A stretch of 64,000 nucleotides of DNA, taken from positions 11,126 through 75,125 of the forward strand of contig UQXO01000007.1 in the NCBI GenBank assembly GCA_900545005.1. The letters are read 5' to 3'. Below, piece after piece: positions 5,057-12,166 of the stretch; the first letter of the stretch is position 1; each line of letters starts with the position of its first letter. Position numbers and translations under genes: made by a program. The notes beneath the pieces were generated by a model. The model saw nothing but the letters and a program-made list of their open reading frames with translations, was not told where the DNA came from and did not search any database. Source of the DNA: an uncultured Mycoplasmatota bacterium (GTDB lineage: Bacteria; Bacillota_I; Bacilli_A; RF39; UBA660).

Positions 5057-5488
5057 ATGCCTAAAACATTTGGGATGTCTTTTTATGGCTATAATAAAAA
5101 CGAAGTAAATGATTTTTTAAATAATGTAACCAAAGAATATGAGGATATGTTAAATAAACTAAAAAAAACAGCTGATGAAAAAGCTAAATTAGAAAGTGAA
5201 TTAGAACAATATAAAAGTATTGAAACTTCTTTAAGAAGAACACTGGCTTTAGCCGAAGAATCTAACCAAACGATTAGGAAATCTGCTAACGATGAATCGA
5301 TAGCAATTTTAGAAGATGCTAAGAAAAACGCCTCAAGAATTATTAATGATGCTTTAATAAGAGCTCAAAAAATCCAAGATGATGCTGATAAAATAAAATT
5401 AGATACTATTAAGTATCGTAATAAAGCAATTAATATCTTAAAAGAACAAAAAGAAATCTTAGATAAATATGAAGACATAGAGTACTAG
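5057..5488 (+). CDS. divIVA: DivIVA-domain cell division protein
   Basis: N-terminal F..SFYGYNKNEVNDFL DivIVA motif followed by coiled coil. GAGGTGGGGG RBS precedes ATG 5057; the track start at 5042 is an upstream TTG. Confidence 0.85.
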   Translation: MPKTFGMSFYGYNKNEVNDFLNNVTKEYEDMLNKLKKTADEKAKLESELEQYKSIETSLRRTLALAEESNQTIRKSANDESIAILEDAKKNASRIINDALIRAQKIQDDADKIKLDTIKYRNKAINILKEQKEILDKYEDIEY

Positions 5489-5508
5489 AAATAGTGCTCT
5501 TCTTTTTG
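5479..5508 (+). terminator. rho-independent terminator after divIVA
   Basis: 8-bp stem AGAGTACT/AGTGCTCT (one G-U pair), 6-nt loop, then TCTTTTT. Confidence 0.6.
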
Positions 5509-5553
5509 TATAAATTTTAAAAATCAGGGAAAAATAATCTATTTCCCATCTTT

Positions 5554-5578
5554 TTCATAGAGTTAAAAACTCTATGAA
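5554..5578. repeat. 25-bp near-palindrome, left copy (TTCATAGAGTT-AAA-AACTCTATGAA)
   Basis: Exact reverse complement of 5819..5843. 11-bp arms surround an asymmetric AAA core. Confidence 0.9.
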
Positions 5579-5674
5579 TACGCATTTACGGCACCTATTT
5601 TTAACTTATAAACTAATTTTAACACAAAACATAGCCTTTTAAAACCATATTTTTTAAGAAACATAATGTTTTTG

Positions 5675-5696
5675 TAGTCAAAATTCTAGTCAAAAG
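5675..5696. repeat. tandem TAGTCAAAA(TT) direct repeat, set 1 (12-nt period)
   Basis: TAGTCAAAATT at 5675 and TAGTCAAAAG at 5687. The complement reads TTGACTA. Confidence 0.85.
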
Positions 5697-5766
5697 AAAT
5701 GTTCTCAAATTCGGGTGAATACTGGCTTTGTAAGGGGTTGCTATAGTAAAAAGTAAAAATCTATTC

Positions 5767-5789
5767 TAGTCAAAATTATGGTCAAAATG
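5767..5789. repeat. tandem TAGTCAAAATT/TGGTCAAAATG direct repeat, set 2 (12-nt period)
   Basis: Copies at 5767 and 5779, 92 nt downstream of set 1. Both sets share the TTCTAGTCAAAA core. Confidence 0.85.
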
Positions 5790-5818
5790 GCATTTAAGCC
5801 CAGTATTTACCGTACCTT

Positions 5819-5843
5819 TTCATAGAGTTTTTAACTCTATGAA
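5819..5843. repeat. 25-bp near-palindrome, right copy (TTCATAGAGTT-TTT-AACTCTATGAA)
   Basis: Exact reverse complement of 5554..5578. Lies 92 nt upstream of the 5935 start codon. Confidence 0.9.
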
Positions 5844-5934
5844 TCCAAAAATTCAATCATATTTTTAAAATAAGTATAAATTTAGTTATTATTTTCATAA
5901 ATTTGAGAATAATTAAGAAGTAAGGATTTTTATT

Positions 5935-7305
5935 ATGAAGAAAAATATATTTTTTATAGGCGTATCCATATGTCTATTAGTTTTACTAGGAGTAGGACTT
6001 TCTTATTCTATGTGGAATATGAATATTAGTCAAGATACTAATAATGTGATTGCAACCACTAGTGAATGCTTTGATGTTGCTATAACTAGTCAAGAAAATG
6101 CAATAAAGTTAGAAAATGCTTATCCCATAAGTGATACCAAGGGAAAAAGCTTAACTCCATTTACTTTTACTGTTAAGAATACCTGTGATATGTTTGCTTC
6201 TTACAGCGTTAGTTTAGAAAGCTTAAAAGAAAGTACTTTGCCTAGTGAGTTTCTAAAAGTTATGGTAAATGATAATGAACCAAAATTATTAAATTCTTTA
6301 GACAGTACCGATACGGTAAATTCAGGAAGTATTGAATCTAGAGTATTAGCTAAAGGTTCCTTATCTAAAGATAGTTCCAAAGATTATTCAGTTAGATTGT
6401 GGATTGATTATGATACTACATTAGAAGATTTAGATAATGAGATTAAAATCTTAAAATCTAAAATAATTATTAAAGCAATACCACAAGGATATGCTGGTGA
6501 AACCATATTTAACTTCAATTATACTGGTGCTGAACAAATTTTTACTGTTCCTGTTTCAGGCACTTATAAACTAGAGACGTGGGGCGCCTCTGGAGTTATT
6601 AGCCATTGGGGAGGTCAAAGTGGTTATGGCGGCTACTCAACAGGATTAATTCATTTAAACAAATCAGATTTAGTCTTTTTAAATATTGGCGGTTCGGGAA
6701 GTAATAGGGGATATAACGGTGGTGATAGCAGTGAATGCGATAATTTATCAAGTGGTGGAGGTGCCACCCATATTGCCACTAAATCAGGCCTTCTTTCATC
6801 TTTAGAAAATTATATATCAGATATTTTAATTGTATCCGGAGGCGGCGGCGGAGCCGAAAGACAAGCAGCTGGATCTGGTGGTGGAATTACAGGAAATAAT
6901 GGTTTTTCAATCACCAATGATGGCAATCTTTTTGGAACTGGTGGCTCTCAAATAGCCGGAGGAACGGGCTCCATTCATGCTGATAATCCAGCTAAATTTG
7001 ATGTTAAAGGCAGTTTTGGCCAAGGTGGTTGCGGTAGAAGTACTTTAGATTCGGGCCCCAATGGCGGTGGCGGTTTTTATGGAGGAGGTGCTACAACCCT
7101 TCTTGGCGGAGCCGGAGGTGGTTCTGGATATATCGGTAATTCCCTATTAACTGATAAGACTATGTATTGTTATAATTGTCAAGAATCATCTGAAGAAAGT
7201 ACTAAAACTATTTCAACAACTTGTAACGAAGAAACTCCAACTGAAAATTGTGCAAAAAAGGGAAATGGTTACGCTAGAATAACTTTAATAAGTATAGATG
7301 AATAG
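5935..7305 (+). CDS. secreted/anchored protein: TasA-style signal anchor + family N-module + C-terminal glycine-rich domain (ALK/LTK GRD-like, PF12810 type)
   Basis: N-terminus is MKKNIFFIGVSICLLVLLGVGLSYSMW. The N-module aligns with ORFs 7317, 26013 and 42019. The C-terminus shows FNYTGAEQIFTVPVSGTYKLETWGASG...GGGATHIA...VSGGGGGAE...GGGGFYGGG, typical of bacterial glycine-rich domain proteins. Confidence 0.75.
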   Translation: MKKNIFFIGVSICLLVLLGVGLSYSMWNMNISQDTNNVIATTSECFDVAITSQENAIKLENAYPISDTKGKSLTPFTFTVKNTCDMFASYSVSLESLKESTLPSEFLKVMVNDNEPKLLNSLDSTDTVNSGSIESRVLAKGSLSKDSSKDYSVRLWIDYDTTLEDLDNEIKILKSKIIIKAIPQGYAGETIFNFNYTGAEQIFTVPVSGTYKLETWGASGVISHWGGQSGYGGYSTGLIHLNKSDLVFLNIGGSGSNRGYNGGDSSECDNLSSGGGATHIATKSGLLSSLENYISDILIVSGGGGGAERQAAGSGGGITGNNGFSITNDGNLFGTGGSQIAGGTGSIHADNPAKFDVKGSFGQGGCGRSTLDSGPNGGGGFYGGGATTLLGGAGGGSGYIGNSLLTDKTMYCYNCQESSEESTKTISTTCNEETPTENCAKKGNGYARITLISIDE

Positions 7306-7316
7306 GAGAAAATAAA

Positions 7317-9293
7317 ATGAAAAGTAAAAAGAAATTAATAATAACTAGTATCTCTATAATAGCTATATGTATTGCCTTTATTGGTTTATCTTATGCTTAT
7401 TGGTATGTAAGAAATATCCAGGATACTACTAGCAATGCAACGACGGGATGTTTTCAAGTAGAGCTCACTAATCAATCGGGAGAAATAAATTTAGATAATG
7501 CATATCCAATTACAGATGAAGAAGGTCTTAAGTTAAAACCATTTAGTTTTACCATTCATAATACTTGTAGTATTTTTGCTCATTATTATGTAAATGTAGA
7601 ATTATTAGAAGGTACAACTTTAAATAGTCATTATGTAGCTACGAGAGTTAATAATGAAGAGATTAAGACTTTAGATAGCTTTAATACAGCAGTAACTACT
7701 ATCGACAACAGCGTATCTTCATATACGGTAGCTGAAGGTTACCTAGGAGCCGATGACCAAGAAGACTATAGTATTTCCTTATGGATAGATGAAGATGTAA
7801 CGGTAGATGATGATATCTTTGGAAAGATTTTTAAATCAAAAGTAGTAGTAAATTCTGAACCTGGTAGCTATGATCCTGTAAGTGCTGGCTATACTAAGCT
7901 AGGTGATGCTATCTTAGCTAATGAATATCAAACAACGCCAGATATAGCTAAGGCAAAAATTGCTAATAAACAAGAAGTTGATTTAACTAATACTGCTCCC
8001 GTAATTAAATGGGTTGAAAAGACAGGAGAAAATTCAACCAAAAGTATTATAAAAATTAGCTCAAATTCGATTAATATAGATGATGCTACTAGTGAATTAA
8101 CTGAGAATGATACAAAATTAAAACTATATACATCGTATTCATTTGATGCTGATACGGCAAAATATAAATTAAGTAATCCGATTGTTGCTGATCCAACTAC
8201 TTTAGATTATTCAAATGGAACTAATTATTATATTATAGAAGAAGATATGAGTTTTAACCAAATGACAAAAAAGTTATTTACTCATAATCTCTTGAGTGAC
8301 ATTACCATATATCTTATTAAAGACGCTTCTAAGTCATCTTCAAAATTGATGTTAAATAATACTTCTTATGATAGTGTAAAATATAATCTTAATGTAACGT
8401 CTTTAACAGAAATGGAGTTAGAAACTGATAAATCTGATAGAGGCTTATATCAAAGTACTGATGATTATGGGACAACCTATTATTATCGAGGCAATGTTAA
8501 GAATAACAATGTTTATTTTGCCGGATTTTATTGGCAAATAGTGAGAATAAACGGTGATGGTTCCATAAGACTTATTTATAATGGTGCCGTAAAAAATGCT
8601 AATGGCATAAATCAATCAATAAATAGTAAAACTTATCAATTTAATAAAGTATATAATGATCCTGCTTATGTTGGCTATATGTATGGTGATTCGGAGGGAA
8701 CGACAGTTGATGAAGTTCATAACAATACTAATTCATCGCCTATTAAAATAATAATAGATAACTGGTATCAAAATAACATTATTAGCAATGGTTACGACGA
8801 CTATATATCAATAACTGCCGGATTTTGTGGAGATAGAACAGTTATTAAAGGCGATGGTGTAAGTAACACAGCGGAAACAACATTTGGAGCACTAGGAAGA
8901 CTGCAGCAGAATTCTGCACAATTCAATTGTCCAGAATTATCAAGGGATTTATATACAACTGCTGATGCTAATATTGGAAATAAGGCGTTAACATATCCAA
9001 TTGGTTTAATAACTTCTGATGAATTAGTCTTTGCTGGCATGGATTCTAAACATACTAATAGGTTATCTTGGATTTATTCAGAATTAAATAGTTGGACTAT
9101 GTCACCTTCCACATTTAACGTATCATATTCGATGGGGAGATTGTTTTATCAAATTGGTAGTGGATATATTCATATTCATGGGTGGCCAACAAGCACGTTA
9201 AGTGTCCGTCCTGTTATAAATCTAAAAGAAGATGTAGAAATATCAGGTGGAATGGGGACGGCAAATGATCCATTTATTGTGAAAACTAATTAA
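7317..9293 (+). CDS. secreted/anchored paralog: same N-module + long linker + C-terminal YYYRGN..WQIVRINGDG..VRPVINLK domain
   Basis: LSYAYW signal end. NAYPITDEEG..FSFTIHNTC..DYSISLWIDEDV is shared with 26013. C-terminal domain motifs are shared with 26013 (ALTYPIGL, VRPVxNLK, DP[FY]). Starts 12 nt after the 5935 gene. Confidence 0.75.
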   Translation: MKSKKKLIITSISIIAICIAFIGLSYAYWYVRNIQDTTSNATTGCFQVELTNQSGEINLDNAYPITDEEGLKLKPFSFTIHNTCSIFAHYYVNVELLEGTTLNSHYVATRVNNEEIKTLDSFNTAVTTIDNSVSSYTVAEGYLGADDQEDYSISLWIDEDVTVDDDIFGKIFKSKVVVNSEPGSYDPVSAGYTKLGDAILANEYQTTPDIAKAKIANKQEVDLTNTAPVIKWVEKTGENSTKSIIKISSNSINIDDATSELTENDTKLKLYTSYSFDADTAKYKLSNPIVADPTTLDYSNGTNYYIIEEDMSFNQMTKKLFTHNLLSDITIYLIKDASKSSSKLMLNNTSYDSVKYNLNVTSLTEMELETDKSDRGLYQSTDDYGTTYYYRGNVKNNNVYFAGFYWQIVRINGDGSIRLIYNGAVKNANGINQSINSKTYQFNKVYNDPAYVGYMYGDSEGTTVDEVHNNTNSSPIKIIIDNWYQNNIISNGYDDYISITAGFCGDRTVIKGDGVSNTAETTFGALGRLQQNSAQFNCPELSRDLYTTADANIGNKALTYPIGLITSDELVFAGMDSKHTNRLSWIYSELNSWTMSPSTFNVSYSMGRLFYQIGSGYIHIHGWPTSTLSVRPVINLKEDVEISGGMGTANDPFIVKTN

Positions 9294-9344
9294 GTAACGG
9301 GGCCGAAATTAATGTGTTCTCTTATCAAATGGCCCCGTTACTTT
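9294..9344 (+). terminator. GC-rich hairpin (11-bp stem GTAACGGGGCC/GGCCCCGTTAC, 26-nt loop)
   Basis: Perfect stem immediately after the stop codon of 7317..9293, followed by TTTGAATATT. The large loop is atypical for a terminator. Confidence 0.45.
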
Positions 9345-9418: not shown

Positions 9419-10111
9419 ATGATAAATATAATTATAAACTTCTTGAAAAGTATTTTCTTATTTACAGGGAGTTATTCTAATACAGTCTTTAAAGAACCAT
9501 TAAGTCCATTAGAAGAAGAAAAGTATATTAACTTAATGGAAACCGGAGATAAGGAAGCTAGAAATATCTTAATCGAACATAATCTTAGATTAGTAGCCCA
9601 TATCGTTAAGAAATTTAATCCTCCACTGACTCTAACTGATGATTTAATAAGTATTGGGACTATAGGACTTATTAAAGGAATAGATTCTTATAAGAAGAAT
9701 AAGAATATTAAAATTACTACTTATGCTGCTAGATGTATAGAAAATGAAATTCTTATGTATTATCGCCAATCTAAGAAATATCAAAATACTGTTTCTTTAG
9801 ATGATTATATTGGTATTGATAAAGAAGGTAATAAGATTAATTTAAAAGATGTTATTAAAGATAAGAATAAACCTATTGAAGAAGAATTATATCTTAAAGA
9901 TAATATCGACTTATTAAAGAAATTTATTACGAAGTTAAATAAAAGAGAACAGAATATCATTACTAATAGGTATGGTCTTAATAATAGAAAAGCTAAGACT
10001 CAAAAAGAAATAGCTAAAGAAATGCATATCTCTAGAAGTTATGTTTCCAGAATAGAAAAACGAGCGATAAGTAAAATCCTAAGAGAATTTATTAAGACTT
10101 CGAAGACTTAA
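9419..10111 (+). CDS. sigK: RNA polymerase sporulation sigma factor SigK (pro-sigma-K, uninterrupted)
   Basis: FKEPLSPLEEEKYINLMETGDKEARNILIEHNLRLVAHIVKKF and ISRSYVSRIEKRA closely match my recollection of B. subtilis pro-SigK. A hydrophobic pro-sequence is present. GGGTGG RBS. Confidence 0.85.
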   Translation: MINIIINFLKSIFLFTGSYSNTVFKEPLSPLEEEKYINLMETGDKEARNILIEHNLRLVAHIVKKFNPPLTLTDDLISIGTIGLIKGIDSYKKNKNIKITTYAARCIENEILMYYRQSKKYQNTVSLDDYIGIDKEGNKINLKDVIKDKNKPIEEELYLKDNIDLLKKFITKLNKREQNIITNRYGLNNRKAKTQKEIAKEMHISRSYVSRIEKRAISKILREFIKTSKT

Positions 10112-11308: not shown

Positions 11309-12166
11309 ATGGATAATGAATATAGAAATTATTTGACAAGTGTTAGAAAGTATCCTGATAATACCGTTAATAGTTATCTTAGTGATATTACTATCTTTAA
11401 AGAGTATTTAAGTTCTTTAAAGATTAATTATCTTAAAGTAGATAAAGATATTATTAGAGAATATTTAAAAGTCTTAGGAAATAGTAATTATAAGAGTAGT
11501 AGTATTAATAGAATTCTTTCTAGTCTAAAGAATTATTATGATTATTTAGAATATAAACATCTAATAGAATATAATCCTCTTAAGGATTTAAATAGACCAA
11601 AGAAAGAAAAAAGACTACCAAATTTCATTAATAATAATGACTACGAAGAGATAATAAAGAAATCCCTAGAACGGACTGACTTTATAGGACGCAGAAATAC
11701 TCTTTTACTAGAACTTCTTTATAGTAGTGGGATAAGAATTAGTGAAGCTCTTAATATTAAGATTAAAGATATTAATATGGGTGATAAAAGTATTAGAATC
11801 CTAGGAAAAGGTAGTAAGATGCGCATAGTCTATTTTGGAGAGTATGCTAAAGAGTATTTAGAAGAGTATCTTAAAGTAAGAAATAGTTCTTTAGAATATT
11901 TATTTCTAAATAAGAATAATACTCTCTTAACAAGAAGAGGAGCCGAGTATATAATTAGTAATTTGGTTAAAACTAGTCTTCTAAAGAAGAAAGTAACACC
12001 CCATACATTTCGACATTCTTATGCTACCGAAATGTTAAATAATGGCGCCGATATTAGAAGTGTTCAAGAACTCTTAGGACATTCTTCTCTTTCCACGACA
12101 GGTATTTATACACATGTGACTAATGAAGTTGTAAGAAGAGAATATTTAAAAGCTTTTAAAAGATAA
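11309..12166 (+). CDS. tyrosine recombinase, XerC/XerD family
   Basis: N-terminal SAM-like domain (NTVNSYLSDITIFKEYL). Catalytic region RISEAL...HTFRHSYATEMLNNGADIRSVQELLGHSSLSTTGIYTHV carries the R..H-R-H..Y residues. Confidence 0.85.
   Translation: MDNEYRNYLTSVRKYPDNTVNSYLSDITIFKEYLSSLKINYLKVDKDIIREYLKVLGNSNYKSSSINRILSSLKNYYDYLEYKHLIEYNPLKDLNRPKKEKRLPNFINNNDYEEIIKKSLERTDFIGRRNTLLLELLYSSGIRISEALNIKIKDINMGDKSIRILGKGSKMRIVYFGEYAKEYLEEYLKVRNSSLEYLFLNKNNTLLTRRGAEYIISNLVKTSLLKKKVTPHTFRHSYATEMLNNGADIRSVQELLGHSSLSTTGIYTHVTNEVVRREYLKAFKR

Follow-up and report, generated by a model that had tools for sequence, protein, structure and literature searches.

The question raised by this locus is whether the short segment of DNA that precedes a surface-protein operon in an uncultured Mycoplasmatota bacterium is a switch that turns around on the chromosome, and, if so, which enzyme turns it and in which direction its promoter fires. 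The segment lies in the window, that is, the whole stretch of 64,000 nucleotides that was analysed, and the two 25-nt sequences at its ends are 100% reverse-complementary to one another and separated by 240 nt. Each of them is a palindrome of the 11+3+11 type, and together they have the layout known from the lox and FRT sites, in which two inverted arms surround a short asymmetric centre, here of 5 nt. When the 64-kb window was searched with the pattern TTCATAGAGTNNNAACTCTATGAA, allowing three mismatches or fewer, the only matches were these two sites, and 100 dinucleotide-preserving shuffles of the window contained no match, which confirmed the exact inverted repeats of the original prediction. 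A search of Rfam with the region gave no match, as the best hits, with E values between 0.55 and 2.6, came nowhere near the gathering thresholds.

The repeat pair is located between the divIVA terminator and the start of the 456-aa gene at 5935, both of which are as they had been described beforehand, and the features of the locus are collected in Table 1.

Table 1. Features of the invertible segment and of its surroundings, in coordinates of the window.
Feature	Position	Strand	Description
divIVA terminator	5479-5500		
Left core recombination site, TTCATAGAGTTAAAAACTCTATGAA	5554-5578		Arms TTCATAGAGT and ACTCTATGAA, 10 bp each, around the 5-nt spacer TAAAA; promoter-proximal in the window orientation
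Invertible interior	5579-5818		240 bp
Strongly conserved block, TATAAGTTAAAAATA (promoter strand)	5596-5610	minus	Around +1 to +14 of the predicted transcript; from the conservation profile of 126 elements
Predicted extended -10, TGTTAAAAT	5616-5624	minus	Directed leftward, across the left repeat and in the direction of the divIVA 3' end; also found by a consensus scan, with the TG
-35-like hexamer, TTTAAA	5638-5643	minus	16 nt upstream of the -10 hexamer; weak as a -35; the family has a conserved CTTTAAAA block here
Tandem box pair 1, TAGTCAAAATTCTAGTCAAAA	5675-5695	plus	Period of 11 nt; around 50-70 nt upstream of the predicted promoter
Tandem box pair 2, TAGTCAAAATTATGGTCAAAA	5767-5787	plus	
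Right core recombination site, TTCATAGAGTTTTTAACTCTATGAA	5819-5843		Arms identical to those of the left site; spacer TTTTA, the reverse complement of the left spacer; gene-proximal
First controlled gene	5935-7305	plus	456 aa; N-terminal signal anchor, C-terminal glycine-rich domain PF12810
Second cassette gene	7317-9293	plus	658 aa; same paralogous family by its N-terminal module; no Pfam match
Xer-type tyrosine recombinase	11309-12166	plus	XerC/XerD-like; 5.4 kb from the switch; less likely invertase

The inversion was assessed through the comparison of independent public metagenome assemblies, that is, between samples. The contigs were retrieved by means of the identical DivIVA protein, in its ATG-start form, and then by means of the 661-aa gene found downstream of the switch in contig L006, while exact look-ups with the TTG-start form of DivIVA and with the C6 flanking protein gave no match. 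Among the contigs that bear DivIVA, the window orientation is present in most samples, and the first example of the opposite state was L006, in which the segment is reverse-complemented in relation to the window and to L008, with flanks and repeats unchanged. The look-up with the 661-aa gene yielded six contigs from different samples, all of which have the switch, identical flanks and an identical gene, and the interior points toward the gene in three of them (L157, L158 and L162) and away from it, as in the window, in the other three (L159, L160 and L161). Once flipped to the same direction, the interiors of the six are 99.6-100% identical, and the repeats and flanks are the same throughout. 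Among the flipped contigs, L006 and L157 are paired as one entry (L006/L157).

As the repeats, at 25 bp, are shorter than the k-mers of the assemblers (k141 and k119 in the contig names), both junctions must exist in the reads. The layout of symmetric arms around an asymmetric core, with the two cores opposed, had been taken originally to predict inversion, and the prediction held, given that the same locus is found both ways in independent assemblies; the locus has what is expected of an inverton, namely inverted repeats around a short segment and two orientations of the segment with their breakpoints inside the 25-mers. Two other genera likewise differ in the orientation of a homologous switch relative to its flanks (L176 versus L177). 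At the ProRS locus, all nine of the contigs examined have a single orientation, so that polymorphism is not seen at every locus in a sample of this small size. The 240-bp segment inverts in nature, a conclusion that is held with high confidence, and from the differences between samples we infer the flipping within a single population, as well as its rate.

The switch of the window is one of a family. Its genome (1.225 Mb, 29% G+C, 25 contigs, 93.5% completeness) has 44 sites, which form 22 pairs on 13 contigs, nearly all of them paired 253-266 bp apart, at a density of around one switch per 55 kb. A conserved interior is enclosed by each of the 22 pairs, and 20 of the 21 full-length switches are directly 5' of a paralogous surface-protein gene, with the remaining one at the end of a contig. 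The presence of the 25-mer at many unrelated intergenic sites, which had been named as the outcome that would favour a generic repeat, was not found in the sense intended, as its ~44 occurrences always come in pairs around one and the same conserved interior, with a paralogue directly downstream wherever the flank was assembled. Sister species have 5-80 inverted-repeat (IR) sites each, and in the other 150 genomes that were sampled in the order the repeat motif does not occur in its exact form, the single site at two mismatches being at the level of chance. In the conservation profile of 126 elements, the repeats stand out together with a block at positions 43-57, a TAnCCATA block at 65-73, TTTTAAAG at 85-92 and two tandem pairs of TAGTCAAA boxes.

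The genes that accompany these switches are also related to one another. The 456-aa protein of the window is paralogous to the genes beside the other switches of the genome that have an assembled flank, and the members of this family have an N-terminal signal anchor, with PF12810 present in several. The content of the cassette at the window locus varies by strain, and consists of either one gene of 661 aa or a pair of genes of 466/511 aa and 658/667 aa. In the strains that have no element at this locus, the whole of the ~3.8 kb is absent (from ~5520 to 9315, both genes included), and at orthologous loci in other strains the centre and the downstream gene are sometimes both different, which shows that whole cassettes are exchanged. 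On the whole, it is highly probable that the element is an invertible promoter switch, or inverton, worked by a tyrosine recombinase, with a single conserved promoter and around 22 members in this genome, and that the integrase described below is the likeliest enzyme.

The point of exchange could be narrowed down by orienting all of the elements by their interior and tabulating their four arms. Variants such as TTCCTAGAGT and TTCATAGAGG are confined to the outer arm on the gene-proximal side, in loci predicted to be ON (promoter toward the gene) and OFF (promoter away from it) alike, and others, for example TTCTTAAAGT, to the inner arm on the promoter-distal side. The outer arms stay with the flanks and the inner arms travel with the interior, which places the exchange in the 5-nt centre or no more than around one base from it. 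This asymmetric centre is probably part of a strand-exchange region of 6-7 bp.

In the full-length pairs of this genome and its relatives, the two centres are exactly reverse-complementary in 124 of 126 cases, compared with 7.0 on average and 21 at most when the partners are shuffled. There are 30 distinct centres among the 126 pairs, with positions 1 and 5 almost always A or T and positions 2-4 free to vary. The simple notion of one unique spacer per locus was ruled out, given that the genome of the window has 14 kinds of centre for 21 loci, with TAAAA occurring three times. Two explanations fit this diversity, one being selection for crossover sequences that are incompatible with one another, which would make recombination between different loci less likely, and the other neutral drift, in which the two members of a pair would be homogenised through heteroduplex at each inversion; our confidence in the idea of orthogonal spacers is low to moderate.

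A census of the recombinases in the genome returned three intact tyrosine recombinases, and no serine recombinase was found there. One of the three is the 355-aa integrase of contig C16, whose start is 196 bp away from a switch; on the other side of this switch is a divergent surface gene. Orthologues of this integrase, with 75-98% identity, are present in 10 of the 13 switch-bearing genomes of the genus, where the other three genomes are 58-89% complete, and in none of the four switch-free ones (0/4). As these four are also the most divergent genomes by Xer identity, the co-occurrence of integrase and switches counts as around one independent event. In five species of the genus, a switch is found 160-200 bp (184-249 bp in locus coordinates) upstream of the integrase gene, and its promoter is predicted to face the integrase in four of the five, so that the expression of the integrase may depend on that switch.

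Evidence of a more independent kind comes from beyond the genus, where homologues of the integrase are found in 28 of 200 genera. In five other genera, a homologue with 36-40% identity adjoins a single switch of ~170 bp that has the same design and an internal extended -10, and whose sites consist of the arm T-Y-W-AAGT, five variable bases and the arm ACTT-W-R-A; when the genomes of these five genera were scanned with this arm pattern, no other paired site was found. In the simplest history, a single integrase would have begun with one switch beside it, and this arrangement would have been expanded in the present genus to 20-40 switches served in trans.

The integrase itself matches PF00589 with an E value of 8e-24, and 36 homologues all share its catalytic residues R193, H302, R305, H328 and Y338 (R..HxxR..H..Y). 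Among solved structures, the best match in both sequence and fold is the Tn1549 integrase, followed by XerA and lambda Int, with full-length lambda Int aligning to the 355-aa protein over ~350 columns. The likeness to the Tn916/Tn1549 and lambda integrases, which are heterobivalent (PDB 6EMY/6EMZ and 1Z1G), may extend to an N-terminal unit of sheet and helix, as judged from an AlphaFold model with a mean pLDDT of 87, in which strands at residues 8-10, 16-25 and 28-36 and a helix at 39-55 form a block (pLDDT 70-91) ahead of the core-binding domain. Residues 1-60 have no sequence match in Pfam or the PDB, and the predicted beta3-alpha fold would have the topology of an arm-binding domain. Those integrases serve for the integration and excision of mobile elements, whereas here no mobile element is involved and it is a chromosomal promoter that is inverted. 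The invertase is most likely this single 355-aa integrase of the Tn1549/lambda-Int type, an assignment to which we give moderate confidence.

The best placed of the competing readings assigns the flipping to a recombinase of the Xer type, either the one of the window, which had been pointed out from the start as the only recombinase there, or its XerC/D-like paralogue on contig C4, and leaves some other task to the 355-aa integrase. Xer1 acts in the vpma and vsp systems of Mycoplasma agalactiae and M. bovis. Surface-antigen inversions in mycoplasmas are driven by Xer-like recombinases (PMC2268961), the window gene is close to the switch, and palindromic arms around a spacer are also a dif-like layout. 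Against this, the orthologues of the window Xer gene are found in all 17 of the 17 genomes of the genus, including the four that have no switches, and the gene keeps its neighbours in strains without the cassette, as would be expected of a housekeeping-like function, whereas it is the integrase that tracks the switches and that adjoins one of them in five species of the genus and in five other genera. An invertase of the Xer type is, on this evidence, unlikely, and the integrase on the other contig is the better candidate. The sites were also considered as Xer/dif dimer-resolution sites, which was rejected, as a single site per replicon near the terminus would be expected, and 44 sites in inverted pairs were found on 13 contigs.

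If the integrase has an arm-binding domain, arm-type sites would be expected for it within the switch. The original prediction had reported four TTGAC(T/C) hexamers that face away from the operon and resemble -35 elements; these hexamers are real, being the reverse strand of the two tandem pairs of TAGTCAAA boxes, but they are not the -35 elements of any mapped promoter, and are instead boxes specific to the switches. There are four to five of these boxes per switch, and in the whole genome 36 tandem boxes are inside switches and two weak ones outside. Tandem direct repeats at around one helical turn resemble, in their spacing, the arm-type sites of the Tn916/lambda class, and the TAGTCAAA boxes may be candidate arm-type sites for the N-terminal domain of the integrase, with an activator site as the alternative candidate role. 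Confidence in the arm-site idea is low to moderate. Four boxes for four protomers would be an attractive fit to arm-type sites, as a hypothesis.

The promoter of the family was located from its conservation. The pattern TGnTAnnnT is present in 126 of 126 elements, its strand relative to the boxes never changes, and its distance from the outer end of the nearer repeat is 61-63 nt in 125 of them and 67 nt in one. The -10 hexamer varies (TATATT, TATAGT, TAAAAT and TATCAT) and the TGnTAnnnT pattern is kept, and changes of the hexamer without a loss of the pattern are what selection on a promoter looks like. Our confidence in the direction of this predicted promoter is good, and the window copy is probably OFF, as the conserved promoter would fire toward divIVA and away from the gene at 5935, whereas contigs L157, L158 and L162 are predicted to be ON.

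Of the switches scored across the genus, 100 have their promoter directed away from the surface gene and 17 have it directed toward that gene, or around 15% ON in the assemblies, which is the pattern to be expected if, at any one time, only a few members of the family are expressed. Contig C5 has a relic (L004:1501-1525) with one repeat and the minus-strand promoter half, which faces a surface gene, but no boxes and no second repeat, and this relic looks like a copy locked in the ON state.

A second competing reading places the functional promoter on the opposite strand, in TGCTATAGT (5738-5746), which had been proposed initially as an extended -10 facing the operon, and which would make the window copy ON, together with most of the assembled switches. 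The element is indeed present, and is a good extended -10 in the window copy, and given that 100 of the 117 switches have the window orientation relative to their gene, the default state could be ON. It lies, however, in the least conserved part of the whole element, where the information is near zero in the 126 copies, and it was rejected as the promoter of the family for this reason, whereas the extended -10 shared by all of the copies, at a nearly constant distance from the repeat, is on the other strand. The C5 relic also keeps exactly the minus-strand half, facing its gene. An operon-facing promoter at TGCTATAGT is, given this, improbable, and the minus-strand promoter is retained in what follows.

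It is far less probable still that the DNA is not rearranged at all, as would be the case if the palindromes were paired operators for a dimeric repressor acting through DNA looping, or if CATAGAGT were a -10 element of the sigma-E/K type, both of which had been offered as alternatives to a switch. The 25-mers are, like operators, near-perfect palindromes, and CATAGAGT resembles CATAcanT, but both orientations of the segment have been observed, and an operator model leaves unexplained why the centres are reverse-complementary within a pair and different between loci. In other genera, moreover, half-sites of the recombinase type are found with a different sequence and the same layout. Neither of the two readings found support, and the observed rearrangement contradicts both; a regulator may bind the arms in addition to the recombination.

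The last reading, a miniature transposable element or generic REP-like repeat, in which the differences in orientation would come from independent insertions, would account for a sequence of ~290 bp with terminal inverted repeats in 22 copies per genome, but its probability is close to nil, and the MITE form of it was rejected, given that target-site duplications of at least 5 bp were found in 0 of 129 cases, with no excess at shorter lengths, that every copy with an assembled flank has next to it the 5' end of a gene from one and the same family, that element-free strains are without the whole 3.8-kb cassette and not the 290 bp alone, that the ON and OFF alleles share flanks, repeats and interior, and so differ by a precise inversion, and that no transposase is associated with the element.

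Under the preferred reading, that of an inverton worked by the integrase, the enzyme would bind the 10-bp arms of both core sites, and the recombination between the two sites, given their opposite orientation, would flip the 240-bp interior. In one orientation, transcription from the outward-directed promoter would cross the repeat and enter the surface-protein operon at 5935 (ON), and in the other, that of the window, it would run toward divIVA (OFF). With around 22 such switches, each of them before a different member of the surface family, the outcome would be a combinatorial variation of the cell surface.

A more elaborate form of this mechanism can be put forward tentatively, with the odds rather against it. 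In this form, the switch would be a self-contained "invertasome", in which four protomers would sit on the core half-sites with their N-terminal domains on four TAGTCAAA boxes, the variable crossovers would be natural orthogonal (heterospecific) sites, and the expression of the integrase would be toggled by its own switch. If this is true, one Tn916-like integrase would run 20-40 switches independently without scrambling a chromosome of 1.2 Mb, and the rate of flipping would itself be phase-variable.

In the mpl (P35) system of Mycoplasma penetrans, many surface-protein genes have an invertible promoter each (Horino et al. 2003, from the summaries in PMC2268961 and PMC10502178), and, as far as these summaries describe it, the system resembles the present one in its small low-GC genome, in the dozens of surface paralogues at several loci, each with its own short invertible promoter and switching independently, and in the tyrosine recombinase or recombinases that act in trans on many sites. 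Paralogous surface genes at several loci were found here as well (22 switches on 13 contigs). The sequences are presumably not homologous, and mpl, compared by its description, is treated as an analogue; the cargo of the present switches is also different, being signal-anchored and glycine-rich (PF12810) and not a lipoprotein. The switches of M. penetrans reportedly have repeats of 12 bp around ~135 bp, whereas the present sites are longer, being palindromes of 25 bp with arms and a variable spacer around an interior of 240 bp, which includes four tandem boxes. The candidate enzyme is another point of difference, as it belongs to the Tn916/lambda type and has a predicted additional domain at its N terminus. 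In functional terms, mpl is the closest known system, as an analogue and not as a relative.

The fimS switch of Escherichia coli is similar in that a promoter segment of ~300 bp with short inverted repeats is inverted by tyrosine recombinases for the control of a surface structure. In that system, the expression of a recombinase is coupled to the orientation of fimS, through the orientational control of fimE, and this coupling resembles the arrangement here in which a switch is placed between the integrase gene and a surface gene. Unlike the present family, fimS is single and has repeats of 9 bp, and FimB and FimE are without N-terminal DNA-binding domains and need IHF and Lrp, whereas one enzyme would serve 20-40 switches here.

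At the level of the individual sites, the likeness is to Cre/loxP and FLP/FRT, including the engineered heterospecific lox spacers (e.g., PMC1479339), with inverted arms, an asymmetric spacer that gives the orientation, partners that share their spacer and several spacers per genome. The dimensions are different, as the present sites have arms of 10 bp and a centre of 5 nt, and loxP is organized as 13 + 8 + 13, and in contrast to the engineered lox variants the variety of spacers is natural here, and is not strictly one per locus.

The switches belong to the same general class as the invertons of gut Firmicutes and Bacteroidota, and a homologous integrase with a single adjacent switch is found in five sister genera. 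Surveys of cultured gut bacteria (PhaseFinder and PhaseFinderDC) have reported groups of recombinase-linked invertons, of up to 72 members, near surface genes (PMC11892184). That survey covers cultured strains only, and so not the present uncultured lineage. The present genus has 20-40 trans-acting sites per genome of 1.2-1.9 Mb. The switch family itself is undescribed, its general kind being already known, and in the literature on the invertons of this lineage, or on natural heterospecific spacers, no relevant description was found.

Human-gut samples commonly contain this uncultured lineage with its small genome, and the DivIVA protein of the window alone is indexed in 676 blocks of assemblies. 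The density of its invertons is comparable to, or above, that of the classic mycoplasma and Bacteroides systems, and the multi-copy switches explain the fragmentation of the assemblies of this lineage. The switches offer an entry point to the way in which such bacteria vary their surface, and this variation would most plausibly be directed against host immunity or phages. The ~30 natural spacer variants for one recombinase could serve to test the identity of the crossover as a means of keeping sites independent, and, if this were confirmed, they would provide a compact toolkit for multiplex inversion.

Finally, two minor features of the arrangement may be added. Three switches are found within 4.4 kb on contig C21. 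Within the interior of the window copy, there is an internal inverted repeat formed by GGTGAATACTGG (5714-5725) and CCAGTATTTACC (5800-5811), which is common among the copies, and is present as a direct repeat in some of them.

Within the genome from which the window derives, one switch lies between the gene of the 355-aa integrase, the candidate invertase, and a divergent surface-protein gene, and in four of the five species in which this integrase-switch-surface gene layout is found, the predicted switch promoter is directed at the integrase. Given this, the expression of the integrase may itself depend on the orientation of the switch, as the arrangement of these genes suggests. For the closest integrase clusters, P0001 and P0002 (168 and 327 member sequences, respectively), every recorded contig is 1.5-1.9 kb long, which is consistent with assembly breaks at the flanking switch and repeats.

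Features of the switches and of the genes adjoining their cassettes
Feature	Location	Description
Switch between 355-aa integrase gene and divergent surface-protein gene	L146:1800-3351, own genome C16	
Internal inverted repeat GGTGAATACTGG / CCAGTATTTACC	window 5714-5725 and 5800-5811	flanks box pair 2 on both sides
Lone repeat with promoter half of switch	L004:1501-1525 = own genome C5:78995-79019	
Group-3-like sigma factor gene	window 9419-10111	Sigma70 regions 2 and 4, about 230 aa
Group-3-like sigma factor gene	own genome C2:126045-126731	Sigma70 regions 2 and 4, about 230 aa

Five further genera of this family (L171, L175, L176, L177 and L178) likewise have an integrase of 36-40% identity beside a switch of approximately 170 bp, whose arms follow the pattern TYWAAGT-N5-ACTTWRA and whose interior contains an extended -10 element. 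The orthologous switch lies in opposite orientations in L176 and L177, and a scan of the genomes of these five genera for the arm pattern found no second paired site.

The internal inverted repeat was found in many copies of the switch, and those in which its first unit is in direct rather than inverted orientation include C3:15315 and C21:7316. At the ProRS locus, strains differ in the centre of the orthologous switch (L142, L147-L156), which is either ATGTA or ATTAA, and the downstream gene differs along with it. L151 has an IS encoding an rve transposase between a lone repeat and ProRS.

Immediately past the uvrB terminator on contig C5, a single repeat is preceded only by the promoter half of the switch (CTTTAAAA, TGATATAGT and the leader), which is directed toward a surface-protein paralogue, while the TAGTCAAA boxes and the second repeat are both absent from this site. 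Judging from its sequence, this half-switch looks like a relic locked in the ON orientation.

The whole cassette of switch and genes (window 5520-9315) is missing from three of the 11 strains with an identical DivIVA (L007, L013 and L014), in which the sigma factor gene directly follows divIVA. As no leftover repeat is present at the empty site, the cassette is, on this comparison, a strain-level insertion/deletion that is not bounded by the recombination sites. The two group-3-like sigma factor genes each adjoin a different switch cassette.
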